From Dehalococcoidia bacterium (lineage in GTDB: Bacteria > Chloroflexota > Dehalococcoidia > Plut-88900): a stretch of 64,000 nt of DNA. The translations under genes were made by a program, and so were the position numbers. This document shows, piece by piece, positions 4,772-59,539 of the stretch. The notes under the pieces are model-generated. The model was not told where the DNA came from. It ran no database searches and saw nothing but the letters and a program-made list of their open reading frames with translations. The stretch spans positions 1,984,001-2,048,000 of the forward strand of contig CBDBLV010000005.1 of NCBI GenBank assembly GCA_965207225.1. The letters run 5' to 3'. The number at the start of each line of letters is the position of its first letter. The stretch's first letter is position 1.

Positions 4772-7700
4772 ATGAAGAAGCAGCACCTACAGCCCCTGAC
4801 GCCGGCGGCCCTCTACGCCAGGGTGTCCAGCGACCGCCAAGACGTGGATCTGTCCGTGGCCGCACAGCTTAGGGCGCTCAAAGAGTACGCCAAGGCCAAC
4901 GGCTACTCCGTGGCCAGGGAGTACGTGGACGAGGCCGAGAGCGGCCGGGTCGCCGACCGGCCCCAGTTCCGGGAGATGATCGCAGAAGGCTCCAAGCCCC
5001 AGGCTCCTTTTGAGGTGATTTTGGTCTGGAAGTTTTCAAGGTTCACCCGCAAGCGGGAGCACGCCGTGGCCTTCAAGGCTCAGCTGCGGCGCAAGGGCAT
5101 CCGCGTGGTGTCCATCACCGAGCAGGCCGAGGACAACGCCACCGGCAGGCTGCTTGAGGGCATCATCGAGAGCGTGGACGAATACTACAGCGAAAATTTG
5201 GCGCAGGAGGTCGTCCGGGGGATGCGGGAGGCGGCTTCGAGAGGCTTCTTCCTGGGCTCCAAGGCCCCCTTCGGCTACCGGAAGATCAAGGTGCAGGACG
5301 GGGCGAAGGAGCGCCCCTCGCTGGAGGTTGACCCTGCCACGGCTCCTGTAGTGAAGGAGATATTCGAGAAGTCTCTGAGCGGCCACGGTCTGAAGGAGCT
5401 GTGCAAGGAACTGAACGACCGGGGCGTCACCAACCGGGGGAAGCGCTGGTACAAGGGCGGTCTCCACTACGTGCTGCGGAACGAGGCGTACACCGGAACA
5501 GCCGTGTGGGGGCTCAAAGGCAAGGGAGAGAAGGCCCAGGACCCGGTGAGGGTTGAGGGAGCGTGGCCCGCGCTGATTTCACGGGAGCTGTTCGAGGAGG
5601 TCCAGCAGGCGATGAGCGAGCGCGCCCCGAAGGTGCAGAGGCCCGCCAGGGTGGGAAGCCCGTATCTGTTGAGCGGGCTGCTGAAGTGTGGGGTGTGCGG
5701 CAGGCTCTACTCGGCCCAGGGAGCCAAGAGCGGCCAGTTCGCCTACTACATCTGCGGGACGCTGTTCCGGGAGGGAGCGGGGACGTGCAGCGCCCGCTAC
5801 CTGAACGCTTCCAGGGTGGAGGAGTTCGTGGTGGAGAAGATCAGGGAGCGCATCCTCACCGAGGAGACCATCGTGGAGCTGGTGCAGCTTGTGGCGGAGG
5901 AGATCGACGCGATGGCCGGTGAGCTTGCAGGGAGGCTGGAGTCTGTGGAGGCGGAGCTGTCCGACGTGCAGAGGCGTCTGGGGAAGCTCTACGAAGCCAT
6001 CGAGACGAGCGACCTGACGCTGGAGGTGCTGTCGCCCCGCATCATGTCCCTGCGGCACCGTGAGGAGCAGTTGGAGGCTGCCAGAGAGGACGCCGAGACC
6101 CAGCTTGAGCAGCGGAGAGTCGATCTGCCCGACACCGAGGAGATCGCGCGGTACGTGGCGGACTTCCGGGAGTTCCTGAAGGAGGGAACGATACCGGAGC
6201 GCAAGGCCCTCATCCGCAACTTCGTTGAGGGCATCGAGGTGGTGGGAGACGAGGCGACGCTGACGTACACGGTGCCCATGCCCAGGGACGGGGTGACCAA
6301 GGAGTCGGCCTCGGTTCTTGATTTCGTCCAGTCCGGCCCAGTGAGTGAGACTGGACGCTGGATGAGAGTTGAATTAGTCGGAGAAGTAATCGCCGGGACC
6401 TTTGAGAGGGGAATCAGCCAATATCCGAACATAGGAGATACGGTTCATCTGGCAGTTGAGGAACACTTGCACCGAATCTACGATATCCGAGGCCAAGGAT
6501 ACGTTGTAATTGGCACTCTCGCCAGTGCCGAAAGCATTTCTGCGAAAGTTGCGCTTGATGAGCTGGTAACACGGCATTCCGCTATTCTCGGCTCAACTGG
6601 TTCCGGCAAGTCCACGACTGTAGCCAGCCTACTACGAGCAATTACGGCATTCGGTCCAGACAGCAACGCATATCCGAACGCCCGGATTCTAATGCTCGAT
6701 ATACATGGGGAATATTCGACTCCTCTCGCCGATGTATCTAAGGTATTCAGCGTTGAACCCCAGCACGGGGAGGAAAAGCTGTTCGTTCCCTACTGGGCAC
6801 TCGACACTGAGGACTTGCTAGACTTTCTGACCGGGAGGCTGGAAGGGAACAGAGAAACGGCATTTACCGACAAGATATTTGAATTGAAATCTGCATCGCA
6901 CTCCGCCCAATTGTTTCCTGGTGTTCAATCCGGCTCAATAACTGTTGACACGCCTTTACCATTCAGTTTGAAGCGACTGTGGCATGAACTTATTGACTTT
7001 GAGATCGCAACATTTGAGGGGAAAGATCGCGACGAGTCTACTCGGCAAGATCCTGGAGACCCTAATACGCTCACACCCCCGAGATATAAACCTCATGCCA
7101 TGGGTGCAACAGGTCCATTCCTAAACCAGCAAGCGTTCGGCATACAACGTCCTCTGAACCTCTTACGTTCCCGACTGCTTGATCGTCGCTATGACTTCTT
7201 GTTGCGCCCCGGGCCGTGGGAACCCGACCTTGATGGTACGGCTGAAAGGGATCTTGATTCACTACTGTCTGACTGGCTTGGAGGTGACAAGCCCATTACT
7301 ATTCTCGATCTGTCTGCAGTGCCTAGCAGCGTGCTTGAGCGTCTGATTGGATCAATTCTGAAGATCATTTATGAGGCTCTGTTTTGGAGTAGAGAGAAGA
7401 CAGAAGGTGGCATTCAGCGTCCTTTGCTTATTGTAATGGAGGAGGCTCATAGGTATCTCTCAGATATATCAGAAGGTACAGCGTCAGATATGGTTCAAAG
7501 GATCGTAAAGGAGGGAAGAAAGTACGGTGTAGGTGCAATGATAGTTAGCCAGCGACCCTCTGAAGTGAACGAGACCATACTTTCGCAATGTGGCACCTTT
7601 TTTGCGCTGCGCCTCTCAAATCCATCTGATCGCGATAGGGTCCGGGGGACACTGCCAGACGGTCTTGTCGGCCTCTTAGATGTGCTACCGATTCTCCGTA

Positions 7701-7945
7701 CGGGAGAAGCTATCGTCACTGGCGAAGCGGCTAAACTGCCCATGCGCTGTCGTGTAAGCCTTCCGGCTAAAGAGAACAGGCCACGTAGCGAAGACCCGGA
7801 AGTGAGTCGTAGTTGGAACCTACCGAGACGTAAAGAGGGTTACGAAAGGGTCGTGGCTTCATGGCGTGCTCAGAGCCCTCTAGCAGTTGCTAATCTCCTA
7901 AACATCAGCCGAACTCCGGTCGAAGATGAGTCTGATCAGGAATGA
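4772..7945 (+). CDS. Large serine integrase (4772-6340) fused in frame to the C-terminal 534 aa of HerA ATPase
   Basis: YARVSS catalytic motif, recombinase domain, CGVCG Zn ribbon and coiled coil; then HSAILGSTGSGKS, MEEAHRYL, KEGRKYG, SQRPSE; RBS GAGGAGG upstream. Confidence 0.9.
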   Translation: MKKQHLQPLTPAALYARVSSDRQDVDLSVAAQLRALKEYAKANGYSVAREYVDEAESGRVADRPQFREMIAEGSKPQAPFEVILVWKFSRFTRKREHAVAFKAQLRRKGIRVVSITEQAEDNATGRLLEGIIESVDEYYSENLAQEVVRGMREAASRGFFLGSKAPFGYRKIKVQDGAKERPSLEVDPATAPVVKEIFEKSLSGHGLKELCKELNDRGVTNRGKRWYKGGLHYVLRNEAYTGTAVWGLKGKGEKAQDPVRVEGAWPALISRELFEEVQQAMSERAPKVQRPARVGSPYLLSGLLKCGVCGRLYSAQGAKSGQFAYYICGTLFREGAGTCSARYLNASRVEEFVVEKIRERILTEETIVELVQLVAEEIDAMAGELAGRLESVEAELSDVQRRLGKLYEAIETSDLTLEVLSPRIMSLRHREEQLEAAREDAETQLEQRRVDLPDTEEIARYVADFREFLKEGTIPERKALIRNFVEGIEVVGDEATLTYTVPMPRDGVTKESASVLDFVQSGPVSETGRWMRVELVGEVIAGTFERGISQYPNIGDTVHLAVEEHLHRIYDIRGQGYVVIGTLASAESISAKVALDELVTRHSAILGSTGSGKSTTVASLLRAITAFGPDSNAYPNARILMLDIHGEYSTPLADVSKVFSVEPQHGEEKLFVPYWALDTEDLLDFLTGRLEGNRETAFTDKIFELKSASHSAQLFPGVQSGSITVDTPLPFSLKRLWHELIDFEIATFEGKDRDESTRQDPGDPNTLTPPRYKPHAMGATGPFLNQQAFGIQRPLNLLRSRLLDRRYDFLLRPGPWEPDLDGTAERDLDSLLSDWLGGDKPITILDLSAVPSSVLERLIGSILKIIYEALFWSREKTEGGIQRPLLIVMEEAHRYLSDISEGTASDMVQRIVKEGRKYGVGAMIVSQRPSEVNETILSQCGTFFALRLSNPSDRDRVRGTLPDGLVGLLDVLPILRTGEAIVTGEAAKLPMRCRVSLPAKENRPRSEDPEVSRSWNLPRRKEGYERVVASWRAQSPLAVANLLNISRTPVEDESDQE
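6313..6343 (+). other. attR-type junction: B attP left arm + herA right half
   Basis: GGTTCTTGATTTCGTCCAGTC-CGGC-CC-AGTG; the arm is the reverse complement of 48352-48372 and matches 59288-59308 at 19/21. Confidence 0.85.
6341..7945 (+). pseudogene. herA: herA 3' fragment (SIR2-associated HerA ATPase) lacking its first 76 codons
   Basis: Starts mid HAS barrel (VSETGRWMRVELVGE...FERGISQYPNIGD); the complementary 5' part is at 59539-59312 on the minus strand. Confidence 0.85.
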
Positions 7946-8173: not shown

Positions 8174-11072
8174 ATGCAATTGACTGACATGGCGAATGTC
8201 ATCAGCCGCAAGAAACTCATAGAGGTCGCTCTCCCGTTGGACGCCATCAACGCGGCGTCGGCGCGAGAAAAGTCCATCCGACATGGGCACCCTAGCACCT
8301 TGCACCTGTGGTGGGCGCGGCGACCTCTGGCGGCAGCCCGGGCAGTGCTGTTCGCCCAGATGATTGATGACCCATCCTCACGCCCTGAGTTGTTTCCCAC
8401 CGAGGACTCCCAAGCCAAGGAGCGGAAACGGCTGTTCGGTATTATCGAGGAGTTGGTGAAATGGGAGAACACTACCAACGAGACGGTCCTGGAAGCGGCG
8501 CGTGAGGAGATTCGCAAGAAGTTGGCGGCGGACCTGCGAAGACAACATAGGCAACCCTAGGGCAGTGGAATTGTTCGACCCCGTAAAACTTCCTGCTTTT
8601 CACGATCCATTCGCCGGAGGGGGCGCGATACCCCTCGAGGCCCAGCGCCTAGGCATGGAAGCCTACGCCAGCGACCTGAACCCGGTTGCGGTGCTCATCA
8701 ACAAGGCTATGATCGAGATTCCGTCCAAGTTTTCAGGTAAACCGCCAGTAAACCCGGATGCCCGGAAGGGCTGGGGCTCCGTAGGTGCGCAATGGAAGGG
8801 CGCGGCGGGCCTGGCTGAGGACGTTCGCTACTACGGCAAGTGGATGCGCGACGAGGCGGAGAAGCGCATTAGCTACCTGTATCCCAAGATTGAGATCACG
8901 GCGGAGATGGCGCAGGAGCACCCTGACCTAAAGTCATACGTGGGCCGCAAGCTCACTGTCATCGCGTGGCTCTGGGCGCGGACTGTCAAGAGCCCAAACC
9001 CGGCCTTCGCCAACGTGGATGTACCCTTAGCCTCCACCTTCGTGCTTTCGACCAAGAAGGGCAAGGAAGCCTACGTGAAGCCGATGATTGAGGACGGCGG
9101 CTACCGATTCACGGTCAAAGCGGGCAAGCCGCAGGAAAGGGCCATGAACGGCACCAAGCTGGCTAGGGGCGCAAACTTCCAATGCTTGATGTCTAAGACA
9201 CCAATAGCAGCCGACTACATCAAAGCTGAAGGCAGGGCTGGGCGCATGGGCGCTAAGCTGATGGCAATCGTCGCCGAGGGTGACCGCAGACGGGTTTACT
9301 TGGCACCCACACCAGAGCATGAATCAATCATTCAGAGTGCGGAGCCCACGTGGATGCCCGATGTCGAAATCTCTCCAGACAGACGTTCAATGTGCACGCC
9401 GCTCTATGGGCATACACACTTTAAACACCTCTTTACTGACCGTCAGTTGGTGGTCCTCACTACCTTCTCCGACTTGGTGGCGGAAGCACGGGAGTGCGTC
9501 CAACGCGATGCCGTAGCGGCGGGTATGCTGGGTGAGGACAGGTCCCTGCAGGACGGGGGGGAGGGGGCGAGAGCGTACGCCGAGGCTGTGGGGGTGTATT
9601 TGGGATTTCTCGTTGACCAATTAACAAATCACTCGTCGACGATTTGCGGTTGGCATGTCAATAACACACAGTTGCGTAATACTTTCGCAAGACAGGCAAT
9701 CCCTATGACATGGGACTATGCCGAAAGTAATCCACTTTGTAATTCTACAGGTAGCTTTAACAACTTGTGTGAGCGTCAAATCAAGGGATTCACAACTCTA
9801 GGAAACGGCGCATGCGGTACAGCTTCTCAGTTAGATGCAGGTCAGAATGAGATGTCTGTGGGGAAGGTCGTTTCCACAGATCCACCCTACTACGACAACA
9901 TCGGTTACGCCGACCTCTCTGACTTCTTCTACGTCTGGTTACGACGCTCAGTCAGGCCAACATTCCCCGACCTTTTCGCCACGCTAGCCGTACCGAAAGT
10001 GGAGGAACTGGTGGCCATCCCATACAGGCATGGCAGCAAGGAACGGGCAGAAGCATTCTTCTTGGATGGCATGACCCTAGCGATGGAGCGCTTGGCTGAC
10101 CAGTCCCATCACGCGTTTCCCGTGACTGTTTACTACGCCTTCAAACAGTCGGAGAGCCGAGGCGATGCCGGGGTTGCCAGTACTGGCTGGGAGATTTTTC
10201 TCGGAGCGATGATCCATGCCGGCTTCGCCGTCACAGGCACGTGGCCAATGCGAACAGAGCTTGGGAATCGCATGATCGGCATCGACTCCAATGCCTTGGC
10301 CTCCAGCATCGTCATCGTTTGCCGTCCACGCCCAGTCGATGCGCCTGTTGCCACTCGTCGGGAGTTCGTTGACGCACTGAAGTCCGAGTTGCCGGAAGCA
10401 CTGCGTCAGATGCAGCAAGGCAACATCGCCCCTGTGGATTTGGCCCAGGCCGCCATCGGGCCGGGCATGGCAGTCTTCTCCCGCTACGCCCACGTCCTGA
10501 ACGCTAGCGGCGATGCGCTTGTCGTGCGCGAGGCCCTTTCCCTCATCAACCAAACTCTTGACGAAGTGCTCGCTGAGCAGGAGGCCGACTTCGACGCCGA
10601 CACCCGGTGGGCGCTGGCCTGGTTCGAGCAGTCGGGGTTCGATGGTGGCGATTACGGCGTGGCTGAGACGTTGTCCACGGCAAAGAACACCAGCGTCGCG
10701 GGCATGATGGAGGCCGGGATACTACATTCGGGCGGGGGCAAAGTCCGCCTGCTCCGGCCTCACGAGTTGCCTGAAGACTGGGTTCCGGATAGCGACCGGA
10801 TCATCGTATGGGAGGCCGTACACCATTTGGTCCGCGTGCATGACAAGGAAGGCGAGGACGCAGCCGCCTCGCTTATGAGCAAACTTGGCCCAGAAGCCGA
10901 GGCGGCTCGCGAATTGGCCTACCGCCTCTATCGCATCTGCGACCAGAAGAACCGGTCTCAAGAGGCCATTGGCTACAATGCGCTCGTGCAGAGTTGGCCG
11001 GAGGTCGCGCGTCTTGCCCATCAAGTTGTCCGCCCCACGCAGGGGAGAATGGGGTTGCCCGATGACCGCTGA
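8174..11072 (+). pseudogene. DUF1156 adenine-specific DNA methyltransferase, +1 frameshift near 8519
   Basis: [51 protein letters not shown]; removing one A in AAGAAGTTGG joins the two ORFs as EIRKSWRRTC. Confidence 0.85.
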
Positions 11073-11379
11073 AACGATCATCTCAACAATGGTGGAACGC
11101 ATCGTCGGACGGTTCCAGCCGTCTCGCGTCGTGCTCTTTGGTTCCTATGCCCGTGGCACCGCCATAGAGTCGAGCGACGTGGACCTGCTCGTTGTCATGG
11201 GGAACGGGACGGACAAGCGCCGTACGGCAGTGGAGATACGGCGGTCGCTGGGAGATCTCCCCGTCAGCAAGGACATCGTCGTTGCCACTCCGGACGAGAT
11301 CACGAGCAGGGGTGGCGTTGTGGGAACCGTGCTCCACGCGGCGCTGCGGGAAGGGAGGGTCGTCTATGAACGACCCTAA
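11062..11379 (+). CDS. Minimal nucleotidyltransferase (MNT antitoxin)
   Basis: VVLFGSYARG...SDVDLLVV motif. Confidence 0.9.
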   Translation: MTAETIISTMVERIVGRFQPSRVVLFGSYARGTAIESSDVDLLVVMGNGTDKRRTAVEIRRSLGDLPVSKDIVVATPDEITSRGGVVGTVLHAALREGRVVYERP

Positions 11380-11782
11380 CCCTGTGATGGAGGAAGCGCG
11401 ACGCTGGCTGCGGTTCTCCGAGGAGGACCTGAGTGTGGCGGCGCGACTCATGTTGGGCGCTCCCACCGCTCCCCGGCACGTTTGCTGGCTTTCGCAGCAG
11501 GCAGCGGAAAAGTCGCTGAAAGCAGCCTTGATACTGGAGGAGGTCGATTTTGCGTTCACTCACGACCTGGACGCCCTTCGCAACCTCCTGCCGGACGATT
11601 GGACTGTGCGGGATACGCACGCTGATCTGGCTGAGTTGACGGAGTGGGCAGTCGAAACCAGGTATCCCGGCGATTGGCCGGAACCCAACGATGACGATGC
11701 GATTCGGGCAATGTCTCAGGCCCGCGCCCTCTACGGCTCCATCGTGGCGGAGTTCAGGAAGCGCGGAATACTCACTGCGTAG
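11366..11782 (+). CDS. HEPN domain protein (MNT-HEPN pair)
   Basis: QQAAEKSLKA...THDLDAL...RYP; overlaps the MNT gene. Confidence 0.85.
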   Translation: MNDPNPVMEEARRWLRFSEEDLSVAARLMLGAPTAPRHVCWLSQQAAEKSLKAALILEEVDFAFTHDLDALRNLLPDDWTVRDTHADLAELTEWAVETRYPGDWPEPNDDDAIRAMSQARALYGSIVAEFRKRGILTA

Positions 11783-11800: not shown

Positions 11801-15202
<3,402 letters not shown>

Positions 15203-45737: not shown

Positions 45738-45956
45738 ATGAAAGACACCAATAGAGAAGATACGAGGAACCGGCAAAAGAAGAGGCCGGGGAGGGATGCT
45801 CCCGAGTCATCCTCCGACAGGCCGGTGGAGTCCTATACTCCTCAGCAGCGGAGGACGATACGCAAGGGGCTGCGCATCCTGGCCAAGGTCGCCGTCCGCG
45901 CCCACATGCGCAGGAACGCGGCTCACTCAGAGGATGACGGCGAGGGCAGGCGGTGA
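45738..45956 (+). CDS. Small basic hypothetical protein
   Basis: 72-aa ORF with amphipathic helix IRKGLRILAKVAVRAHM. Confidence 0.5.
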   Translation: MKDTNREDTRNRQKKRPGRDAPESSSDRPVESYTPQQRRTIRKGLRILAKVAVRAHMRRNAAHSEDDGEGRR

Positions 45957-46017
45957 ACGTCCCGCCCAACCTTGTCCCCGGCAGACTCGTTGGAGATGGC
46001 CGCGTGAAGCTAGCATC

Positions 46018-46046
46018 TTGGCATAGCACGAAAGCCGTGCTATTAT
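46018..46046 (+). promoter_or_regulatory. higBA promoter with palindromic operator, probably leaderless
   Basis: TTGGCA-17-TATTAT; ATAGCACG-N5-CGTGCTAT at 46023-46043; ATG begins 7 nt after the -10 box. Confidence 0.7.
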
Positions 46047-46052
46047 GTACTT

Positions 46053-46346
46053 ATGATTGTCTCATTCAGAGACGGCGGTACAGAGGACATCTTCAACGGG
46101 CAATCCACTCAAGCGGCCCTGCGGGCATGTCCCATGCCGATATGGGGAGTGGCTCATCGAAAGCTTGACCAGATCGATTCCGCCTCCGTTCTGGGAGACC
46201 TCAGAATACCTCCCGGCAACCGCCTGGAACGGCTGGCCGGAGATCGAAGCGGGCAACACAGTATTCGCGTCAACGACAGGTATCGAATCTGCTTCACGTG
46301 GACACCTGCCGGACCCGCCGACGTCGAAATCACCGACTATCACTGA
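46053..46346 (+). CDS. higB: HigB toxin (RelE/ParE family)
   Basis: DLRIPPGNRLERLAGDRSGQHSIRVNDRYRICF. Confidence 0.9.
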   Translation: MIVSFRDGGTEDIFNGQSTQAALRACPMPIWGVAHRKLDQIDSASVLGDLRIPPGNRLERLAGDRSGQHSIRVNDRYRICFTWTPAGPADVEITDYH

Positions 46347-46354
46347 AGAGGAGA

Positions 46355-46720
46355 ATGAGCATGGTACGCATTCCCACCGATCGAGAGCCTACGCATCCGG
46401 GCGAGATGCTTCTGACGGAGTTCCTGCTGCCCCTCGGAATGACTCAGCGCGACCTGTCCAATGCCATTCACGTGCCCTATCAGAGGGTCAACGAAGTCGT
46501 CCGAGGGAAGCGGGGGGTCACGCCAAGCACCGCCCTGAGGCTCTCTAGGTTCTTCGGCACTTCGCCCGGCTTTTGGATGAACCTGCAACTCCGTTGGGAC
46601 CTCTACCACGCCGAGCGTTCCGAGGCTGAACAGATCGAGGGCATCCTTCCGCGTGAAATGGTCAGCGCGCTTGGGGAAGACACGGGTTCGATGACGACGA
46701 TGCCGGGTGTTGCAGGCTAG
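46355..46720 (+). CDS. higA: HigA antitoxin
   Basis: PTHPGEML...ALRLSRFFGTSPGFWMNLQ. Confidence 0.9.
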   Translation: MSMVRIPTDREPTHPGEMLLTEFLLPLGMTQRDLSNAIHVPYQRVNEVVRGKRGVTPSTALRLSRFFGTSPGFWMNLQLRWDLYHAERSEAEQIEGILPREMVSALGEDTGSMTTMPGVAG

Positions 46721-46764
46721 TAGTGGCCCACGGGAACGACAGGAAACAGGAGGAGGACTCACAG

Positions 46765-49913: not shown

Positions 49914-49956
49914 GTCGTCCTCCTCTGCAATCTTCTGTACTTAGGGGAGGCCAGCC

Positions 49957-51003
49957 TTAGGCCAGCCCCCAGGGGTAAGATTCACCTTTGACATATGAAA
50001 TGGAACCGTCCAACCTCACCGTGATTACGGCGTCGAAGGCCGATAGGTCGCACCCATCCCAGGCTGCGGACTCCGTGCCACCGATAGAATCTACGATGTC
50101 CACTAGTAAGAGGCAGAAGCGAGAGTATTCTGGGCATTCGGCTCGCTTACCTGCTTTGTCGTTGACCTCCTCCTGTAAAACTTCACCGACCTTGTCGTTC
50201 GTTATGAAGTTCCGGAAGACATTGTTCCGTCCCCTAGCGTCCAGTTCTCGATTCACCTCCACATAAGAGACCATGCCAGATTCTACGCGTGCAACCTCAA
50301 CTGCCCATTCCTGCCCTTCCACGAGGAGTTCAAAGTCGGGAAAGCTATTCCCGAGAGGTTCGTATCGATATTTCAGGTCTTCTTGTGAGATGCCGAAACG
50401 CGAACATAGGTCAACACGGAGTGAATGGAGAGCGAAGTGCTCCATGTCTTCCTTGGAAGCATACGCGGGCGAGAATCGAAGCCCGTCCAACCGGTCGCTT
50501 TCTACGAGACGCTGTACGGCAGGGTCCGTTGGGTTGACCAGGCCGATGACGATGCTGTCTTGACTCATGTATTCGTCCTCGAAGAGGTCTACCCTGAACG
50601 CGAAGGTTTCCTTCATGTGGTGAACGCTCAATAGTTTTCGATTGTCGGTAGACAAGGGAAGATGAGACAGGATTGAGGTCAACTTCTCCCGCTTCATTGG
50701 GTGATAACGGATGAGTACGCTATCGCATCCATGGACCCAGTCCATGTCATTCTGGGAGATGATGTGTGACACCTCTTCCCTCAGAAATCCAAGAGTCAGT
50801 TTTCTCCCGTTGGCTGGGGTATGTGGGACAGACTCGGAGAGATCTTTGGATTCTAAGGCGGCCCTCAAAGAGTTCGACGCACGCCGGTACTCATTGACGG
50901 TGCTTCCCTGTTTACCCGGAATCAAGACAAACTGATACCAGGGCAACTTCTGGTATTCAGGGTCTTCCTTCTTCACATACTTGGTCGGAAAGGCGGATGT
51001 CAT
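49957..51003 (-). CDS. Hypothetical protein with C-terminal PD-(D/E)XK-like motif
   Basis: FPDFELLVEGQEWAVEVAR; lower GC than flanks. Confidence 0.65.
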   Translation of the reverse strand: MTSAFPTKYVKKEDPEYQKLPWYQFVLIPGKQGSTVNEYRRASNSLRAALESKDLSESVPHTPANGRKLTLGFLREEVSHIISQNDMDWVHGCDSVLIRYHPMKREKLTSILSHLPLSTDNRKLLSVHHMKETFAFRVDLFEDEYMSQDSIVIGLVNPTDPAVQRLVESDRLDGLRFSPAYASKEDMEHFALHSLRVDLCSRFGISQEDLKYRYEPLGNSFPDFELLVEGQEWAVEVARVESGMVSYVEVNRELDARGRNNVFRNFITNDKVGEVLQEEVNDKAGKRAECPEYSRFCLLLVDIVDSIGGTESAAWDGCDLSAFDAVITVRLDGSISYVKGESYPWGLA

Positions 51004-51049
51004 GAAGTTTTCCTAATCTCGCTGGGGGTTCCGAATCGTGGTTCGCAAC

Positions 51050-51382
51050 TTAACTCACCAGGACGCCTATCGTGGTGCCAAGGGCGCTGGCGATGCGTAC
51101 CAGGGCCGAGGCCGATCCGGGTTTCAGCCCGCGCTCAATCTCGGAGAGGTACCCTGAGGCAAGGCCGGTCCTCTCGGACAACTCCCTCAGGGTCATGCCC
51201 TGGTGGTTCCGAAGCGCCTGGATGGGACCCTTCCCCCGCATGATGTCGAGAGCGACCTCGTGAGGGACGCGCACGCCGTCGTCGGCGTCCTGGGCAGCCA
51301 GCATGTCCTCAAGCTGGCTGTTGCGCTCGATGAGAGCGTCGTACTCCCTTCGAGTCAAGGTTACGGTCTGTTCGCTAGTCAT
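51050..51382 (-). CDS. XRE HTH antitoxin
   Basis: IQALRNHQGMTLRELSERTGLASGYLSEIERG. Confidence 0.85.
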   Translation of the reverse strand: MTSEQTVTLTRREYDALIERNSQLEDMLAAQDADDGVRVPHEVALDIMRGKGPIQALRNHQGMTLRELSERTGLASGYLSEIERGLKPGSASALVRIASALGTTIGVLVS

Positions 51383-51632
51383 AAGCCTCCCTCCTGTGTC
51401 GAACTCTCAGGATTATGAGGGTTGAGGGCTCGCCATGTTCGGTGGCGAAGATGACGCGGTGTTGGCCGACCCGCAACCGGCTGTAGTCACTGCCGGTCAG
51501 CGCAGTCACCTGTCTGGCGAGAGAGGCGGGGTTCTCGGCATATTGCTCAACCTTGCCGATGATGCGCTCCCTGTCCCGCGCGGCGAGACGGCGCATATCC
51601 CTGATGGCCCGCGTCCCCCATTCGATTTGCAT
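51375..51632 (-). CDS. relE: RelE/ParE family toxin
   Basis: IEWGTRAIRDMRRL...RLRVGQHRVIF...VRHRREAY. Confidence 0.85.
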   Translation of the reverse strand: MQIEWGTRAIRDMRRLAARDRERIIGKVEQYAENPASLARQVTALTGSDYSRLRVGQHRVIFATEHGEPSTLIILRVRHRREAYD

Positions 51633-51861
51633 TCCCTCATACACACCCTCTATATTCGCAAATAGAGAGCAGTGAGTCAAGGGCGCACCCACGCGGGCAG
51701 CGTCTCTAGTTTCAGCTAGAGTGATTTCCGAAAGCCGCCTCATCCGCCACTTTCGCAGGACGGTCAGCAACCGGCGCAGTGCTTGAATCTCGTATTTCGC
51801 TCGCTCTGGTTGCATACCCTCACCCCAGGCAGCATTCTCCCTTCAAACTGAGACACTACCC

Positions 51862-52296
51862 TCACGCGACCAGCCGCCACGTGAGCAGACCAACGACCAC
51901 GAGCAGCACGACAACGGCCAGGCCGAGCCTGACGGCCAACCGCCTCATTCGTCTGCGGGCATCGCGCTCCTTCTCGTACTTCTCCTCCATCTCCTCAAGC
52001 GCCTGCCGGTCGGCGGCTGCGGCGTACACCGCCTCGTCCCGCTCCCGCTCCAACGCCTGCGCCCGCCGATCCAGCTCCAGCAGCCTCCGCCCAAGCTTCC
52101 CCTCACGTGCCAGAGCCCGGCGCAGCAGCTCCTCGTCGCTCACCCGGTCCGGCCCCTCCATCCGCACGTTGACCCTCCGGCCCTCCCTGCGCACCTCGAC
52201 CTCTCCCCGCCGGATCATCCGGTCGAGGGTCGAGATGGAGACCTCCATCTCCCGCGCCGCCTCCGCCTTCGCCACCCAGCGCACCCGCTCAGCCAT
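51862..52296 (-). CDS. Excisionase-like HTH + coiled coil + TM protein
   Basis: Paralog of 228-662, same length. Confidence 0.8.
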   Translation of the reverse strand: MAERVRWVAKAEAAREMEVSISTLDRMIRRGEVEVRREGRRVNVRMEGPDRVSDEELLRRALAREGKLGRRLLELDRRAQALERERDEAVYAAAADRQALEEMEEKYEKERDARRRMRRLAVRLGLAVVVLLVVVGLLTWRLVA

Positions 52297-52729
52297 CGCT
52301 CCCGTCCTCGCCCTGCCGCCTGCGCCGCCGCCACCGGCTGAACAGGCGCAGCCCACCGCCCTCGGCGTCGTCTTCCTGCTCCCGCGCCGCCTCCAGGGCC
52401 TCCACGCGCTCCGTCAGGTCATCCACGAGGTTCCTGAGATCATCCACCTCTCTGATCGCCTGCCGCATCCTCCCCTCCAGCCTGTCCAGGGGCGTCGTCC
52501 TCTCCCCATCGGGATCGTCCAGGCCGGCCATGAACCGCTGCACGGCCAGGGTCATCTTGCTCGTCAACCGCTCTTTGCTCAGGGCCAGGGCCACCGTCTT
52601 CCGGTTCACACCCAGCAGGGCCGCCGTCCTGCGCTGACCCTCCCGCTGGACGAGGTACTCCACGACCCACTTCTGGTCGGGTCGCCCGTCTACGGCCTTC
52701 GATTTCATCTTCGACTTCCCAGAGGTCAT
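52289..52729 (-). CDS. HTH/coiled-coil element core protein
   Basis: GQRRTAALLGVNRKTVA; paralog of 2-235. Confidence 0.75.
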   Translation of the reverse strand: MTSGKSKMKSKAVDGRPDQKWVVEYLVQREGQRRTAALLGVNRKTVALALSKERLTSKMTLAVQRFMAGLDDPDGERTTPLDRLEGRMRQAIREVDDLRNLVDDLTERVEALEAAREQEDDAEGGGLRLFSRWRRRRRQGEDGSDG

Positions 52730-52757
52730 CTTCGTCCTCTACCGAGATGGGCCGTTT

Positions 52758-53170
52758 CTGCAATTTTCGGTGGAACCGGCCCTTGACAGCGACCGGTCAC
52801 ATTTTTCGGCCAAACCCCCGAAATGTTGCATAAATCCAAACCTGCGTGGCCCGAAATGTCCGCTCCTGACCATGCCCCCATTTCGCGTCATGCACCCCCA
52901 CCTCAATTCCTGCAATTTCCGGTGGGCCGCCCTGGGCCAAAGACGCCGCCGACGCGCCGGTTTTGCTCCTCATAGACGCTTCAGACCCGCATCCGTACCT
53001 ACATCCCCCATGATCGGCTGACCGGTCAGGGTGGTAAGAGTGCAATTCCGGCGTCTCCGGAGCGCGCCCTAACTTTAGCACAGCTTCTCCCCAACCTGCA
53101 TTATTTGCCGTTGACCGGTCGAGGACGTTGCAGCCCGTTTCGTAGCTGAATCAGGGGAATATGACCGGTC
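52758..53170. repeat. Candidate origin (oriT/oriV) of element B with clustered repeats
   Basis: GACCGGTC x4 (52791, 53020, 53113, 53163); CTGCAATTTYCGGTGG x2 (52758, 52910); motifs shared with A at 52884-52906 and 53138-53157. Confidence 0.55.
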
Positions 53171-53259
53171 TCGGCTATTTCGAGGCCCCGCCGGAGGTAC
53201 AACTTGTACCGTTTTGCGCCCCCCAGACGCCAGGGAGGGCAGACAGCGTTGCATCGACG

Positions 53260-55089
53260 CTATCTATGTCCCCTCCTATTGGACGCCTCTACAGGACGGG
53301 TGGGACGCATCCGGTGGTACAGCGGGTCGTAGACGTAATCGCTCAGCTGGGACAGCCTCAGCCGGGGGGAGGACGGCGCCCACAGGGGGCGCCAGGACTC
53401 CCCCAGTATCCCCGTGGTGCTAAGCACAGGGATGCAGGACACCAGGACGGGCAGCGACATCCGGTGCATCCGGGCGGCGGTGCTCATGTAGGTCTCCTCC
53501 ACCTCCTCACTGTCCACGACGAACAGCGTGACCGGGTACGGCGGCAGGTCCTCTTTGTGCTCGTTGGACCAGTAGTAGTCTTCGTAGGGGTCCAGTCGTG
53601 CCATCACTCCCCTGGGGTGACGGGCTCTGAGTTCGTGCTCAAGGTAGAAGGGCACAGGATGGCCCTCGGCGACAAGATGCCCAACGGCGTCGGGGGCGAT
53701 GGCGGAGCGGCCCCAGTTGTAGGCCCGGTCGGACCTGGCGGTGGGGACAAGCCATACAAGCTCACTGTCGGGATCGGAACGGGTCTCAGATGCAAGCTGC
53801 GAGAGGAACCAGGTGATGCCGTCCGTGTGCCTCGTCTGCCTCGCCCACGTCTCGATACGGTGGCCTACGTGCCGAGGCCGTCCCTCTTTGTCCGTGGTGC
53901 GCTCCGTGCTCCAGATACCCCGCGTGGTGGGCAGCTCGGCCCGGTCCCGGTGGGTCACGTAGCGTATCCCCTCGTCGGACAGCGTGTAGCGAACCTCGCC
54001 CCGTTTGCCCCGGCGCTCCACGAGACCCCAGGTCTTCACCAGGCCGTGCATCATCTGGCTGACCCTTCCCTCGGAGACGCCCAGCCAGGTCGCCAGGTGC
54101 TCGCGGGGGATCATCGGGTGGTCGGTGATGAGGTCCAGCGTGCGCTTCTCAGCGGGGCTGAGGCCGAAGGCCGGCGCAGCCTGCGTCATCCGCTCAGGAT
54201 CGGGCAGGGAAGCTCGCTTACGCTCCGGCGACATGGTGAGGGGTCTTCGTCTCCTGCCAGCCGTGCCCCGGGAGATGACATCTTCCAACGTGTGGAAGAC
54301 GTTCCCAACCCACCCCGTGGTCTCCTGCCAGACCCGGCGGTTTCGTCGTTCTAGGGCGGTCCTGGACTCTACGGCAACGAAGCAGTCACGCAGATAGACC
54401 TGCTCGCAGAACCTCCCCGTCTGCCTCCGCTCCCAGACGCTGGGAACCAGGCTGAGAATGACATCGGGGCGGCGGCTGGAGTCGTAGTGGGCCAAGGCCC
54501 GTAGCCGGTCGCGGAGGGAGCGCCTGCGTAGGGCCAGGCCCTGGCGCACCACGCCGAAGTCCCGCCCGTCGTGGAGGGTGATGGTGGCGTCGAACCGGCC
54601 CCTGCGGTGGAACTCCACGCGGGACCGCAGGCCGTCCGAGCCGGGGGACATCGTGGCGGCGAGACGGTAGACGGCGGCCACGGCGTCCATCCTGCGCAGG
54701 AGCAGCGTCAGCCACTCCCTGGACATGGGGTAGGCCCGCACGAAGTCCGAAAGCGTGTCGTAGTCCAGCAAGTCGGCTGTCTCACGTATGCCCTTCGCCG
54801 TCAGGTAGTATCGTGCGCTTGACGGCAGGTGGACGGTGCCGTGGGTGACTCTCCCGACGATGCCATCGTCCAGCAGGCCGGTCAGGGCGCGATGGACGGT
54901 CGCGTGCGGCTCGCCCAGGACAAGCGCCAGCTCCGTCGATTCGACGAAGGGCATCCGGGCAAGTGCGTCGAGCAGCTGGTGGTCAGTAAGGACCATAGCC
55001 CCACGGTAGCGATTGAGCGTCCTGGTGGGCAACTGGGACGTGTCAGCGCCGCGCTTGGCACCGACAGACTGCTGAGAAGCCTGACTCAC
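53260..55089 (-). CDS. Replication-relaxation (Replic_Relax) family protein
   Basis: RHTDGI...IAPDAVG...FYLEHELRA; colinear homolog of 43297-44958. Confidence 0.7.
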   Translation of the reverse strand: MSQASQQSVGAKRGADTSQLPTRTLNRYRGAMVLTDHQLLDALARMPFVESTELALVLGEPHATVHRALTGLLDDGIVGRVTHGTVHLPSSARYYLTAKGIRETADLLDYDTLSDFVRAYPMSREWLTLLLRRMDAVAAVYRLAATMSPGSDGLRSRVEFHRRGRFDATITLHDGRDFGVVRQGLALRRRSLRDRLRALAHYDSSRRPDVILSLVPSVWERRQTGRFCEQVYLRDCFVAVESRTALERRNRRVWQETTGWVGNVFHTLEDVISRGTAGRRRRPLTMSPERKRASLPDPERMTQAAPAFGLSPAEKRTLDLITDHPMIPREHLATWLGVSEGRVSQMMHGLVKTWGLVERRGKRGEVRYTLSDEGIRYVTHRDRAELPTTRGIWSTERTTDKEGRPRHVGHRIETWARQTRHTDGITWFLSQLASETRSDPDSELVWLVPTARSDRAYNWGRSAIAPDAVGHLVAEGHPVPFYLEHELRARHPRGVMARLDPYEDYYWSNEHKEDLPPYPVTLFVVDSEEVEETYMSTAARMHRMSLPVLVSCIPVLSTTGILGESWRPLWAPSSPRLRLSQLSDYVYDPLYHRMRPTRPVEASNRRGHR

Positions 55090-55171
55090 AAGGAGTCACC
55101 TATGGCTAGTCGTGCTCGTAGCCAGCCCGCGCATGTCGTCTACGCGTCTCTTAGTTGAAGGCTTCTAGACG

Positions 55172-55202
55172 TTGAATCACCGCTACTTGAAGTATATACT
55201 TC
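55172..55202 (+). promoter_or_regulatory. RM operon promoter with perfect 14-bp palindrome over the -10 box
   Basis: TTGAAT-17-TATACT; GAAGTATATACTTC at 55189-55202. Confidence 0.7.
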
Positions 55203-55209
55203 CGAGTAG

Positions 55210-55416
55210 TTGGAAGGGAGGAGCAGCTTGAAAGGTACTGAAAATGGACAACGTGGAACTTTCCTGGTGACGGCGTATAGGTGTCGTTGTGGACACGAGT
55301 GGGTTCCAAAGAAACTGCGCAGCGCGGAACGTCCACGGGTTTGCCCAAAGTGCAAGAGCGCCAACTGGGACAGGCCCTATCAATTTCGGAGGGGAGGTGC
55401 TCCTAGCCAATCATGA
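55210..55416 (+). CDS. Small Zn-ribbon protein, candidate RM controller (start uncertain)
   Basis: YRCRCGHEW...VCPKCKSANWD; stop overlaps the MTase ATG. Confidence 0.65.
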   Translation: MEGRSSLKGTENGQRGTFLVTAYRCRCGHEWVPKKLRSAERPRVCPKCKSANWDRPYQFRRGGAPSQS

Positions 55417-56336
55417 GTACTCTTGAAGCACCCAACTCAGCCGACTTGGTGACTGTGGACAAAGGCCACATTCTTCTTGGAAACGCATTCGACTGGCTGG
55501 AGAAGGCCGAACGAAACTCGATTCACGCCGTGGTGACCGACCCGCCGTACGGGTTAGTTGAGTACTCGCCATGTCAACTCGAAAAGCTCCGCAACGGCAA
55601 CGGAGGGGTTTGGCGAATACCTCCGGCGTTCGACAACGCCGCCCGCAAGCCCGTTCCTAGATTCACAGTGCTAAATGACGACGACAAGGAGCGTCTTGAG
55701 GCGTTCTTTGATCGCTTTGCTGCCCTGCTGATGCCGGTCTTGGTTCCCGGCGCTCATGTCTTCATAGCGACCAACCCTCTAGTCTCCCACTTCGTCTATC
55801 TGCCCTTCGTCAGGGCGGGCTTCGAGAAGCGGGGAGAGATCGTCCGTGTGGTTCAAACCTTGCGTGGTGGTGACCGTCCCAAGAATGCACACGTTGAGTT
55901 CTCCTCTGTCTCGGTCATGCCCCGGTCCTGCTGGGAACCGTGGGGCCTGTTCCGCAAGCCATGTGAAGGACGTGTCCAAGACAATCTGCGCAAATGGAAG
56001 ACAGGGGGGCTTTCGCGTGTGTCCGACACTGAGCCATTTCGGGATCTCATTCAATCCTCTCCCGCTCGGGGACTCGAAAAGAAGGTAGCCCCTCACCCGA
56101 CGCTAAAGCCTCAAGACTTCATGCGGCAACTTGCACGAGCTTCTCTTCCGTTGGGCGAAGGCGTAATCCTTGACCCGTTTATGGGTTCTGGCTCTACGAT
56201 CGCGGCAGCTGCCGCTTGTGGTCTGGACAGCATAGGTATCGAGATCGACCCGGAGTACTTCAAGATGGCGCGTACAGCTATTCCTCAGCTAGCGAAGTAC
56301 GTCCCTAACGGAAGCAGGCATAATGGTCAGAAATGA
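55413..56336 (+). CDS. Beta-class N4/N6 DNA methyltransferase
   Basis: VTDPPYG precedes HPTLKP and LDPFMGSGST. Confidence 0.92.
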   Translation: MSTLEAPNSADLVTVDKGHILLGNAFDWLEKAERNSIHAVVTDPPYGLVEYSPCQLEKLRNGNGGVWRIPPAFDNAARKPVPRFTVLNDDDKERLEAFFDRFAALLMPVLVPGAHVFIATNPLVSHFVYLPFVRAGFEKRGEIVRVVQTLRGGDRPKNAHVEFSSVSVMPRSCWEPWGLFRKPCEGRVQDNLRKWKTGGLSRVSDTEPFRDLIQSSPARGLEKKVAPHPTLKPQDFMRQLARASLPLGEGVILDPFMGSGSTIAAAAACGLDSIGIEIDPEYFKMARTAIPQLAKYVPNGSRHNGQK

Positions 56337-56931
56337 CTGGTTCGATTCATCGGTGCCGCTTCCTCCAGGTCTAACTGTCGGCGCGATCCGCAGGTCTATA
56401 GACTATGTCGAGCGTGAGCTCGCGGAGTTGGTGGAAATCTACGACGAGCAAATGAACGTATTCAGCGCAATTGTCGGAATCTTCGGTACGCGAGCACTCG
56501 ACTCGGTCAGCAACTACGAGAAGCACAGGAACCTCGACACCGCCCAGCAACGGTTTCCCGATCTGCGTCGAAGAGGGTCCGGTTCGAACCCCACGGCCAA
56601 CGACTCATTGGAGAGTAAGGCAAGCAAGAGGCCGTGGGCGCTGCAATCGCATTTCGACCATCCTGGATGGTATATCGTCTGGCGATATCTTGTTGATCCT
56701 ACCGAGACGTTAGAAGCTGGCAGGCCGGTCATTGTTTGGCGCGTGGACGTCGCATTCATCGATAAGGAAGATTGGAAGTACGAATCGAGCAGCGCAGGAC
56801 CGGCGGGCGGAGGACGTACTCACACCTTCGGCCTGAATCGTCCGGCAACAAAATTGCGGGGCAAGGCTGTCTATCGACGGGGCGATGTCGCCCTAGTTGG
56901 TGGGAAGCCGATCCCTGCGAATGGCGACTAG
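56323..56931 (+). CDS. Putative type II restriction endonuclease
   Basis: FPDL...LESKAS PD-(D/E)XK-like motif; overlaps the MTase. Confidence 0.6.
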   Translation: MVRNDWFDSSVPLPPGLTVGAIRRSIDYVERELAELVEIYDEQMNVFSAIVGIFGTRALDSVSNYEKHRNLDTAQQRFPDLRRRGSGSNPTANDSLESKASKRPWALQSHFDHPGWYIVWRYLVDPTETLEAGRPVIVWRVDVAFIDKEDWKYESSSAGPAGGGRTHTFGLNRPATKLRGKAVYRRGDVALVGGKPIPANGD

Positions 56932-57133
56932 ACATATTGGATCAGGTGCCGAAGGTGGATGACCGAAGATGTCGCCGCGCTTTACGCCCAAGCCTAAGTT
57001 CGCAGCCATGACTTCGTGCACCAAGTTTAGGCCACCTTCGTCTCTCCTGGAATCTGGAAGCAACATCCGCCCGACAATGGGCATCCATCCACTTCCACCT
57101 AGCCTTGCCACTATCGGACCAGGAGCCGCCCCA

Positions 57134-59257
57134 TCACTCGCAGACCACGCCGTCGTTGTCGGCGTCGTTCATGTACTCGTATGCGGGATGTCCACGGCGC
57201 ACAGGAGCAATGCCGTGGTTGCGCGCCTCCGCGCAGGTGATGCGGCCGTTCCCGTTGTCGTCGTACAGCTCTAGGGCGTTGTTGACTGCTCCGTCTCCTC
57301 GCGCAGTAGCGGGGGTCGGTGTAGGGGCGGGAGCTTCTCGCACAATCATCTCAGTGGACGTGCAGCCCGACAAGATGCTCTCCAGGGCGTCACGTTCGCT
57401 TTCGTCGATGGTCAGGTGATATCTCTCCTTGACCTCGACGACGCGGTTCGCAAACCAGCAATGATTCAGGTCGGGGACCCATTCGGCGACATCCTTGCCG
57501 CTCTTCTGGTGGCGATTCACCGAGGGACTGGCCAGGGTGAGATTGATCAGGTCTGAGGCAAACCGTCGTCTCGTTGCGGAGTCCGCTGCGCAGAGGCCGC
57601 TGTCGTGGGCCTCGGAGCGTGCGACGATATGCTCGATATCGGTGTCCGACGTGCTATCGAACCAGCTTCCCGTGTATGGGCCGTAGACGATGCCTCCCAT
57701 GCTGTCAACGATTTCTTGCTCCACGGACTGGGGATAACGGTAGTCGTCAGCGTCATATGTCGAGCAGCGGTCTTCTGGCGCAACCACAAGCCCGCGCCAG
57801 GTACCCAGACGATTGTGGGCTTCTGAACCAGTATTGAGGTCAATTTCAAGGACGCAGCCGGTCTTGAAGTACTTGTCGGTATCGAGAATCTCGACGTAGA
57901 ACTGCCCTCTCGCGTTGTCTATGGCAATGACGTCCGACAACTCCCCCGACACTCCGCTCAGGCGAGTCCATGAGCAAGAGTCCAGCGCCCCAGTTCCCGC
58001 CATCCCTGCATATACGCCAGGTCGGATGTCTCGTCCTACGATGTGCGTGCCGATCTCAATCTTTGACAACGGCTCATCTGGTGTGGGCCAGTCATCAAGG
58101 TGGGTCATGGAGCAGCCGGTCTTGAAGTACTTGTCGGTATCGAGAATCTCGACGTAGAACTGCCCTCTCGCGTTGTCTATGGCAATGACGTCCGACAACT
58201 CCCCCGACACTCCGCTCAGGCGAGTCCATGAGCAAGAGTCCAGCGCCCCAGTTCTCGCCATCCCTGCGTATACGCCAGGTCGGATGTCTCGTCCTACGAT
58301 GTGCGTGCCGATCTCAACCTTTGACAACGGCTCATCTGGTGCGGGCCAGTCATCAAGGTGGGTCATGGAGCAGCCGGTCTTGAAGTACTTGTCGGTATCG
58401 AGAATCTCGACGTAGAACTGCCCTCTCGCGTTGTCTATGGCAATGACGTCCGACAACTCCCCCGACACTCCGCTCAGGCGAGTCCATGAGCAAGAGTCCA
58501 GCGCCCCAGTTCCCGCCATCCCTGCATATACGCCAGGTCGGATGTCACTACCGACCTCGTACGTTCCAGGATCGAATCCAGCTTGGATGGTGGTCATCGG
58601 CTCCGGTGTTTCCGTGGGGGTTTGAGTCGATGCTGGTGTCGGTCTCGGTCCCGGATTGACAGTAGGAGGGATGCTCGTAGCGGTGGGGTCAGGCTTCGGT
58701 GTCGATACTGGCTCAGAAGTCATAGAATCGGAAGTAGTTACTTCTATGCTGATCTCTTGGCCTTCCACCCCTCCTAAACCAATTGCTCTTATGCGGTACT
58801 TGTGCTCTTCGCCGCTTCTGAGTCCCGCGTCGGTAAACATTGCCTCCGATACGAAGTGATGCTCGTCAAGGCCCAAGAATACGTCTCGGGTCACTTCATA
58901 ACGTTCGACAGTAACCACATCGCTGTTTACTGGAGGTTTCCATTTGAGCGTGATTGAGTTCTCAGTAACACTGGCTACCTCAAGGTTCTGAATGACACCT
59001 GGAGGGGCGGCAGCAGAGGTGGGAGTGTCAGTCGATGCGGGCGTTGGCGTCACCAAAGGTGCCGACGTGGGGGTGTCAATCAGCGTGGGTGTTGGAGTTG
59101 CCGTAGGTGCCGGTGTGGAGGTGTCGATCGGCGTAGATTGCTCGTCGCTACATGCGGCCAGAGACATGACGAAAAGGACCACTACGAGGCTGATTAACAT
59201 CACCGGGCGGGCTCTCTCCCGTGACCGTGTACGTATCGACGCCTCAAGCCTCTTCAT
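57134..59257 (-). CDS. Lipoprotein: FN3, tandem repeats, DUF1524/HNH nuclease domain, Excalibur domain
   Basis: LAAC lipobox; YRIRAIG; DIEHIV...VNRHQKS; TCAEAR...DADNDGVVCE. Confidence 0.8.
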   Translation of the reverse strand: MKRLEASIRTRSRERARPVMLISLVVVLFVMSLAACSDEQSTPIDTSTPAPTATPTPTLIDTPTSAPLVTPTPASTDTPTSAAAPPGVIQNLEVASVTENSITLKWKPPVNSDVVTVERYEVTRDVFLGLDEHHFVSEAMFTDAGLRSGEEHKYRIRAIGLGGVEGQEISIEVTTSDSMTSEPVSTPKPDPTATSIPPTVNPGPRPTPASTQTPTETPEPMTTIQAGFDPGTYEVGSDIRPGVYAGMAGTGALDSCSWTRLSGVSGELSDVIAIDNARGQFYVEILDTDKYFKTGCSMTHLDDWPAPDEPLSKVEIGTHIVGRDIRPGVYAGMARTGALDSCSWTRLSGVSGELSDVIAIDNARGQFYVEILDTDKYFKTGCSMTHLDDWPTPDEPLSKIEIGTHIVGRDIRPGVYAGMAGTGALDSCSWTRLSGVSGELSDVIAIDNARGQFYVEILDTDKYFKTGCVLEIDLNTGSEAHNRLGTWRGLVVAPEDRCSTYDADDYRYPQSVEQEIVDSMGGIVYGPYTGSWFDSTSDTDIEHIVARSEAHDSGLCAADSATRRRFASDLINLTLASPSVNRHQKSGKDVAEWVPDLNHCWFANRVVEVKERYHLTIDESERDALESILSGCTSTEMIVREAPAPTPTPATARGDGAVNNALELYDDNGNGRITCAEARNHGIAPVRRGHPAYEYMNDADNDGVVCE
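57854..58546. repeat. ~2.7 near-identical tandem copies of a 258-bp (86-aa) unit
   Basis: GCAGCCGGTCTTGAAG recurs at 57854, 58112 and 58370. Confidence 0.9.
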
Positions 59258-59539
59258 TTAGACCTCCAACCTGAACCTCAACTGAAAGGTTCTTGATTTT
59301 GTCAAGTCTGGTGGACCGATGCTTTCTGGAACGGCCCTTGCACCAACTTCGGCGACTATACCGAACAGATCTTGGTACCCTTGAGGCACTCTGATGAAGC
59401 TGCCGACCTGCCCCACCTTATAGGTCTGCCCCCCGAATATGGACAAACCCGAGTCAATTGATTTAGCGAGGTGGACACTAAGGGTCGCGCCCGATACGAC
59501 TGCGATAGTGCCAAGATAGGTAGGATCACGACTAAGCAT
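59258..59539 (-). pseudogene. herA: herA 5' fragment (76 codons) fused in frame to the integrase B tail
   Basis: MLSRDPTYLG...VGQVGSFIRVPQGYQDLFGIVAEVGA...ESIGP then PDLTKSRTFQLRFRLEV*; start overlaps the SIR2 stop. Confidence 0.85.
59288..59317 (-). other. attL-type junction: herA left half + B attP right arm
   Basis: Minus strand GGT-CC-ACCA-GACTTGACAAAATCAAGAACC. Confidence 0.85.

Follow-up and report, generated by a model that had tools for sequence, protein, structure and literature searches.

Off-target exchange by a tRNA-mimicking serine recombinase as the probable cause of a split herA and a scattered Hma defence island in a Dehalococcoidia genome

The 64,000-nucleotide stretch analysed here (positions 1984001-2048000 of contig C5 in the genome of a Dehalococcoidia bacterium, G000; hereafter, the window) carries a Hma defence island with a nested SIR2-HerA pair, whose herA gene lies in two halves 53 kb apart on opposite strands. 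Both herA breaks fall on the central CC of a 52-bp site of a B-type large serine recombinase (LSR). From these sequences we consider it very probable that a B-type LSR exchanged strands between its 52-bp attachment site (attP) and a chance look-alike of the attP core within herA, exactly at the CC. The exchange would have broken herA and torn the Hma island apart, and the resulting layout looks like a fixed scar in an element-ridden genome, not a working switch. The genome spans 4.03 Mb in 5 contigs, with a completeness of 92.3% and a contamination of 8.3%.

Results

Both herA breaks fall on the crossover dinucleotide of a serine recombinase site

The split gene and its two junctions, J1 and J3, which join herA to the mobile elements B' and B, are laid out as follows, ORF denoting an open reading frame throughout.

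59315..59539, minus strand: herA 5' part, 75 aa; PDB 8wiv_A residues 8-79, E 8.5e-16
6341..7945, plus strand: herA 3' part, 534 aa; PDB 8wiv_A residues 88-624, E 1.8e-155; PADLOC HerA PDLC04105
6313..6339, plus strand: J1; P arm of B' (21 bp), CGGC, crossover CC at 6338-6339
59288..59314, plus strand: J3; reverse complement of the B P' arm, TGGT, crossover GG at 59313-59314

The two halves correspond to consecutive parts of one protein, with residues 22-93 of the 5' piece aligning to residues 8-79 of 8wiv_A and residues 7-533 of the 3' piece to residues 88-624. Scripted inversion of 6339-59313 yielded a single 610-aa HerA ORF, in agreement with an earlier note on this DNA, which had claimed that the halves join in frame to about 610 aa. 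When the joined protein was compared with six homologues, five aligned end-to-end with no gap opening (73-81% identity), while the sixth, from locus L060, aligned with two gap openings at 71% identity; the continuity that the note had expected of the joined protein was thus observed. A scan of contigs and metagenomes from other genomes returned 80 homologous loci; the highest identity among them, 78%, indicates that none belongs to the same species. In all 80, the homologues of SIR2 and of both herA parts are adjacent, colinear and in frame, and the spacing between the herA parts equals that of the reconstructed join in 28 loci and exceeds it by one codon in 40. Among the 41 genomes searched (G000 and 40 relatives), G000 is the only carrier of this herA.

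At J1, the arm GGTTCTTGATTTCGTCCAGTC (6313-6333) is followed by CGGC, the CC at 6338-6339 and then the 3' part of herA (AGTGAGTG...). On the plus strand of J3, the arm GGTTCTTGATTTTGTCAAGTC (59288-59308) is followed by TGGT, the GG at 59313-59314 and the reverse complement of the herA 5' part. The J3 arm is a near-copy of the J1 arm, with 2 mismatches, and when up to 3 mismatches were allowed the arm matched at 3 places in the window, where 100 shuffles gave an expectation of 0. In-silico inversion of 6339-59313 regenerated a 52-bp site with arms of 21 bp that match at 19/21 positions and the core CGGCCCACCA. With a length of about 50 bp and imperfect inverted arms around a central dinucleotide (core CGGC-CC-ACCA), this site has the build of an LSR attP, and its core reads as a copy of a tRNA 3' end. 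The target inside herA is ATCGGT-CC-AGTGAG. J1 and J3 have only the CC in common and no base was gained or lost between them, as in a conservative exchange. The earlier note had placed both breaks on the CC at the centre of a 52-bp attP of integrase B with 21-bp arms, and had stated that one inversion restores herA and brings the island onto one strand; the junction sequences and the in-silico inversion bear out both claims.

The crossover codons encode Gly-Pro (GGY CCA) in both the integrase gene and herA. At J1, the ORF of the B' integrase, Int1, continues in frame into the 3' half of herA, giving a 1057-aa integrase-HerA fusion ORF (4772-7945, plus strand). At J3, the herA 5' ORF runs on into the natural C-terminal tail of an integrase.

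Three recombinase genes and four junctions describe the inverted segment

The elements and junctions of the remainder of the segment are listed here; the names of the ArsR-like and glyoxalase-like genes come from reading their translations and not from a family scan.

4772..6337, plus strand: Int1, B-type LSR of element B' (Pfam); the element continues past the left end of the window
18603..19428, plus strand: ArsR-like and glyoxalase-like block; the original tRNA-downstream flank, which ends at the J0 crossover
19423..19453, plus strand: J0; flank, TGGT, GG (19427-28), GCCT, P' arm of element A
19429..48345, plus strand: element A (28.9 kb), delimited by its end arms; contents from Pfam
46723 to ~48345, plus strand: Int2, integrase of element A (Pfam)
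48321..48372, plus strand: J2; P arm of A, TGGT GG (48346-47) GCCG, reverse complement of the B P arm
48348..59312, minus strand: element B (11 kb), from Pfam, ORFs and homology to B'
49913-48267, minus strand: Int3, integrase B (Pfam)

Int1, Int2 and Int3 are the three LSRs of the window, and each combines the Resolvase (PF00239), Recombinase (PF07508) and Zn_ribbon_recom (PF13408) domains in one protein within the ~500-700 aa expected of an LSR. In inverted orientation (4747-6340 versus 49938-48345), Int1 and Int3 share 89% nucleotide identity across 1594 bases, and the identity is 86% in a second block (1-666 versus 52526-51857); B' and B are therefore sister elements. Int2 and Int3 converge on J2. 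The 53-kb segment is thus made up of 13 kb of native island (6340-19426), element A and element B. The earlier note had counted two junctions, overlooking the half-sites J0 and J2 and hence element A, and it had mistaken the gene at J3 for an integrase; this gene (57134-59257) encodes fn3, GmrSD_C and Excalibur domains, and integrase B lies at 48267-49913 on the minus strand.

Element A carries genes for large surface proteins, a helix-turn-helix (HTH) regulator, an IS21 copy, a T4CP (type IV coupling protein)-like protein and a Replic_Relax protein in addition to Int2. The IS21-type insertion (37577-39612, minus strand) encodes IstA, with rve and Mu-transposase C-terminal domains, and the IstB ATPase. 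A palindrome at 27356-27394 was considered as an att site and rejected, as it looks like a terminator-type hairpin. The cargo of element B comprises the GmrSD/fn3/Excalibur protein, a DNA methylase, a Replic_Relax protein and a pair of small genes (146 and 110 aa) that, from its translations and not from a family-library scan, reads like a toxin-antitoxin pair, besides Int3. Within the fn3/GmrSD_C/Excalibur gene, 57846-58546 consists of direct repeats (98% identity, period ~259 bases), which probably encode repeated fn3 modules. Element B' encodes a UvrD-type helicase of 892 aa (673-3351, plus strand) that has a topoisomerase zinc ribbon and matches PADLOC GajB models. With this helicase and with the DNA methylase and GmrSD-like protein of element B, the elements responsible for breaking the host island carry defence-like genes themselves.

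The junctions are unlikely to be an assembly artefact

In a metagenome-assembled genome such as this, a layout of this kind could in principle arise from the false joining of different strains or of repeated integrase genes. The assembly, in 5 contigs, is 92.3% complete and 8.3% contaminated, Int1 matches another copy at 100% identity over ~1.6 kb, and J1 is the sole junction that was compared with reads. Read evidence was taken from Logan contigs over one stretch, 4000-20500, in which contigs of 3 runs from one sample span 6311/6312 to 8855, thus including J1, with 0 differences; these contigs reach 27-28 letters to the left of the CC, where the bridging threshold is 31 letters. Against an artefact, the words of J1 occur at 0 differences in the contigs of all 3 runs, two herA breaks on one recombinase-site CC with reciprocal halves are not what a mis-join would produce, and the four junctions form a closed and consistent set. 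We therefore regard an assembly artefact as very improbable.

The restored island is a Hma system with a nested SIR2-HerA pair, and two of its genes are frameshifted

The genes of the island other than herA are as follows.

60920..64000, minus strand: HmaA, SNF2 helicase with a NOV_C domain (Pfam); PADLOC HmaA E=0, profile 183-1172 of 1176; the 5' end lies beyond the window
59532..60781, minus strand: SIR2, frameshifted near 60190-60200, where runs of T5 and C4 lie; PADLOC SIR2 PDLC04094
7955..8167, plus strand: small 70-aa ORF between herA and HmaB, from the ORF listing (candidate KTSC by an earlier label, not by a family scan)
8174..11072, plus strand: HmaB, DUF1156 adenine methylase (Pfam DUF1156 in 8174-8560), with a frameshift near 8500-8515
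10885..11782, plus strand: MNT (nucleotidyltransferase) and HEPN pair (Pfam NTP_transf_2, HEPN); limits are those of the ORFs, with uncertain starts
11801..15202, plus strand: HmaC, DUF499 ATPase with an N-terminal Swt1-like HEPN domain (Pfam); PADLOC HmaC E=0

HmaA, HmaB and HmaC are all present, each at E=0 against the PADLOC models, with the HmaB match covering 8502-11072 and profile positions 114-958. As defined in the available text of 10.1101/2024.01.29.577857, the genes of a Hma system lie close together on one strand and include no pseudogene. Here, HmaA occupies the minus strand from 60920, HmaB and HmaC lie at 8174-15202 on the plus strand, and HmaB is frameshifted. Inversion restores the order HmaA-SIR2-HerA-small ORF-HmaB-MNT-HEPN-HmaC on one strand. 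The order HmaA..SIR2-HerA-HmaB-HmaC is intact in 2/80 foreign loci (L042 and L060); intact operons in related genomes, for which the earlier note had suggested looking, were absent from the 40 relatives, which hold no herA homologue of this kind.

The SIR2-HerA pair is of the defence type according to its PADLOC profiles, its solved relatives (8w9l_A and 8wiv_A) and the retention of the pair in 80/80 homologous loci. Neither partner is intact in the window, as herA is split over 53 kb and SIR2 occupies two frames: its N part aligns to residues 15-192 of 8w9l_A and its C part to residues 199-367 in a different frame, whereas the two parts share one frame in 80/80 homologues. The two parts of HmaB form a single frame in L042 and L060. 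Contigs of 3 runs agree at every base across the HmaB lesion, and the SIR2 shift is known from the assembly. Guest defence genes nested inside Hma have been described (10.1101/2024.01.29.577857, available text); SIR2 or HerA as a guest has 0 mentions in the main text of that source, whose supplementary cassette tables might list SIR2-HerA.

The layout looks like a fixed scar

The earlier note had proposed a candidate integrase-driven switch that disabled the defence system in a potentially reversible way. In its strongest form, integrase B together with a directionality factor would still flip the 53-kb segment, and the tRNA-mimicking stack of elements would turn the Hma/SIR2-HerA island on and off; the two frameshifts would then represent late decay or assembly noise. 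In keeping with this idea, J1 and J3 are intact attR-like and attL-like sites, and the window holds three full-length serine recombinase genes. Elements of this type that interrupt genes and restore them upon excision include SPbeta, skin and the fdxN element. However, the frameshifts in SIR2 and HmaB remain in either orientation, so that the restored 'on' state would still be broken and neither orientation gives a working gene set, and the HmaB lesion is the same in the contigs of 3 runs. Contig depth at J1 is 5-18, equal to that of the unique DNA that follows it. No joint to an intact herA was listed for the J1 stretch, a weak point because contigs drop rare forms and a further 195 loose ends stand outside the list. 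In addition, no recombination directionality factor (RDF) was identified, and Int1 is now fused to 534 aa of HerA. A live switch is therefore a very remote prospect in our estimation. Of the earlier proposal, the LSR exchange at the CC between attP and the herA look-alike is supported, whereas the switch is not.

A contig joint from 6340 to 19434 (with CCAT between) was considered as a variant of the locus and rejected as cross-mapping of J2-type sites from other copies. In run X1, a sponge metagenome from another study, a strain ~98% identical is represented by a 2481-base contig that matches 6334-8251 of the window. The match breaks off precisely at 6334, the point expected for an intact herA; a B arm would extend it leftward.

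The recombinase family targets tRNA 3' ends and builds stacks of unlike elements

We next consider the wider family, which gives the herA scar a context more important than the scar itself. In G000, 40 loci matched the integrases at E<=1e-20, including 4 distant ones (<30% identity) and 3 fragments, and 25 B arms were found. The common core, YRGCCCACCA, corresponds to a tRNA acceptor end plus CCA. Five A-type elements adjoin intact genes for tRNA-Ile, Ala, Lys, Val and Met, the crossover falling ~5 bases away from where the tRNA ends, and in the relatives two B-type elements adjoin tRNA-Val. The idea that only A-type elements use tRNAs, which 5/5 cases in G000 had suggested, is ruled out by these two B-type elements. 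In the relatives G001, G005 and G007, homologues of the J0 flank (88% nucleotide identity) stop precisely at TGGTGG, where they abut the 3' end of tRNA-Val or tRNA-Ala. The P arm and core of B resemble a tRNA 3' half, with 20/31 positions matching tRNA-Ile by hand count. Taken together, the LSR family targets the 3' ends of several tRNA genes, and each of its elements carries a mimic of a tRNA end.

The ArsR/glyoxalase-like block near J0 is a diverged second copy (88%) of a block at C5:1851508-1852333 of the same genome. The latter is the orthologue of the gene pair of the relatives (96% to G008) and has a decayed A-type arm beside it.

Elements of the arm types A, B and C form a stack of ~78 kb behind the tRNA-Met gene at C5:1911997, in the order A3, C, B'', A*, B', with the 53-kb segment at its far end. 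All 18 two-armed junctions in G000 join unlike arm types. The convergent B-type/A-type integrase site seen at J2 recurs at 7 further places in G000, while a junction of two B arms was found at 0 of the 18 junctions in G000 and at none in a survey of 12 family genomes with 70 B arms.

B' (C5:1973012-1990338) and B'' (C5:1944386-1962016) are 95% identical over 7 kb, within which three tracts (2.2, 0.6 and 1.8 kb) show 100% identity; the third of these ends 63 bases short of the crossover site. This pattern indicates recent gene conversion between these direct copies, which are 28 kb apart. In one 200-nt patch, B' and B agree at 30/40 informative sites, and identical runs of 50-80 nt are present between them. 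From these alignments, recombination among element copies is evident.

Two possible routes of equal length to the present layout

As to how the exchange in herA became a 53-kb inverted layout, the order of events and the mechanism of the flip that we infer would run as follows. Initially, the order at the far end of the tRNA-Met stack would have been B', element A, native flank. Off-target integration of a free B copy into herA, as an ordinary direct insertion, would have come next, after which the inverted sisters B' and B, with ~4.7 kb of 86-89% identical blocks, would have recombined and flipped the 42 kb between them (6340-48345). We tentatively prefer this route, at somewhat below even likelihood. 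The state before the flip needs only junction types that are present elsewhere, the convergent B/A site occurring at 7 other places. The earlier note had offered an insertion of B followed by a flip between integrase modules as its alternative, and the genome-wide pattern fits this at least as well as it fits the note's own first choice.

In a one-step history, a tandem of B' and B would instead have left a whole attP in the chromosome (the P arm of B' and the P' arm of B), which integrase B recombined with the opposed look-alike in herA, inverting 6339-59313, or a shorter 24 kb if element A came later. A single conservative event would then account for both herA junctions, by the helper-free forward reaction of serine integrases (attP x attB, with inversion when the sites are opposed). 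The regenerated site is B's own attP (arms 19/21, same core), Int1 and Int3 show no visible chimera, and the two sites lie close together, as an intramolecular reaction would lead one to expect. The regenerated attP would also be reactive, which could explain why none survives. Against such a history, the B-B junction that it requires is absent from the 18 two-armed junctions of G000 and from the 12 family genomes. Building the B'-B tandem would moreover require recombination of attP with attL or attR, a reaction that the studied serine integrases, phiC31 and Bxb1 among them, are not known to perform. If A was already present, a nearer true B-type target would have existed in the A-type distal arm by the flank at J0, in deletion orientation. 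We consider the one-step history possible and rather doubtful.

The insertion-then-flip and one-step routes are histories of equal length, and both fit. Several points count against the insertion-then-flip route that we prefer. It needs an extra type of event, the homologous flip, that the one-step route does without, and the identity between B' and B of only 86-89% would lower homologous recombination. No reciprocal chimera was found within the integrase gene: Int3 is ~10% from every other copy in all 100-nt windows, and Int1 is close to other copies at both ends. This leaves the upstream blocks or the final 29 identical bases as places for a crossover, and the test for a chimera is itself limited, as Int1 is masked by recent 100% conversion from B'' and an upstream crossover is possible. 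Whichever candidate crossover is taken, B' lies closer to B'' than to B on either side of it, the right side again being masked by recent conversion. That B landed no more than 42 kb from its sister is also slightly coincidental. Finally, the assembly (92.3% complete, 8.3% contaminated) is the single source for J0, J2 and J3. Co-integration of A and B into herA followed by a 13-kb inversion was also considered and rejected, since it needs recombination of two attR-like sites. The remaining probability falls to more complex paths.

Discussion

The window preserves a clean natural record of off-target serine integrase action in which both reciprocal junctions survive, so that the point of exchange, the look-alike target and the harm done to two nested defence systems are directly readable. 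It also illustrates mobile elements dismantling host defence in a genome of very high element load.

Pseudo-attB use and inversion by serine integrases are established. In the literature searched, of partial coverage and without supplements, we came across neither a natural case of serine-integrase inversion through a pseudo-site within a defence gene nor alternating LSR stacks of this kind. Known gene-splitting counterparts are SPbeta (SprA, spsM), skin (SpoIVCA, sigK) and the Anabaena fdxN element (XisF), in which, as here, an LSR element splits a host gene precisely and could in principle rebuild it. Those elements are direct insertions at evolved sites with regulated excision, whereas in G000 the site is off-target, the halves lie on opposite strands, the neighbours are frameshifted and no evidence of reversal was found.

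The integrase of phiC31 uses pseudo-attB sites in foreign genomes. PhiBT1 uses a pseudo-attB in Nocardia (PMC5937489, available text). The likeness to these integrases, as far as the latter text describes them, lies in recombination of attP with a partly matching chromosomal site and in exchange on the central dinucleotide; the present case differs in being natural, in lying inside a defence gene and in having ended as a 53-kb inverted layout rather than a plain insertion.

The tandem island arrays at tRNA genes described in the available text on Islander (PMC4383910), and those of SXT/R391 as cited in PMC3218068, are similarly composed of stacked elements with a tRNA-end fragment at each junction, but they are built by tyrosine integrases, whereas three alternating serine-recombinase arm types occur here. 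LSR targeting of tRNA genes is given as unknown in the available text of PMC4383910 and as rare in that of PMC3218068, whose cases are Mycobacterium AICEs (actinomycete integrative and conjugative elements) in tRNA-Leu and phage phiRSM in tRNA-Ser.

Finally, the island resembles Hma systems with embedded defence genes (10.1101/2024.01.29.577857; PADLOC, PMC8565338; available text) in that guest genes stand between HmaA, HmaB and HmaC, on one strand once the order is restored. It differs from them in that HmaA now lies 53 kb from HmaB and HmaC, on the other strand, and HmaB is frameshifted.

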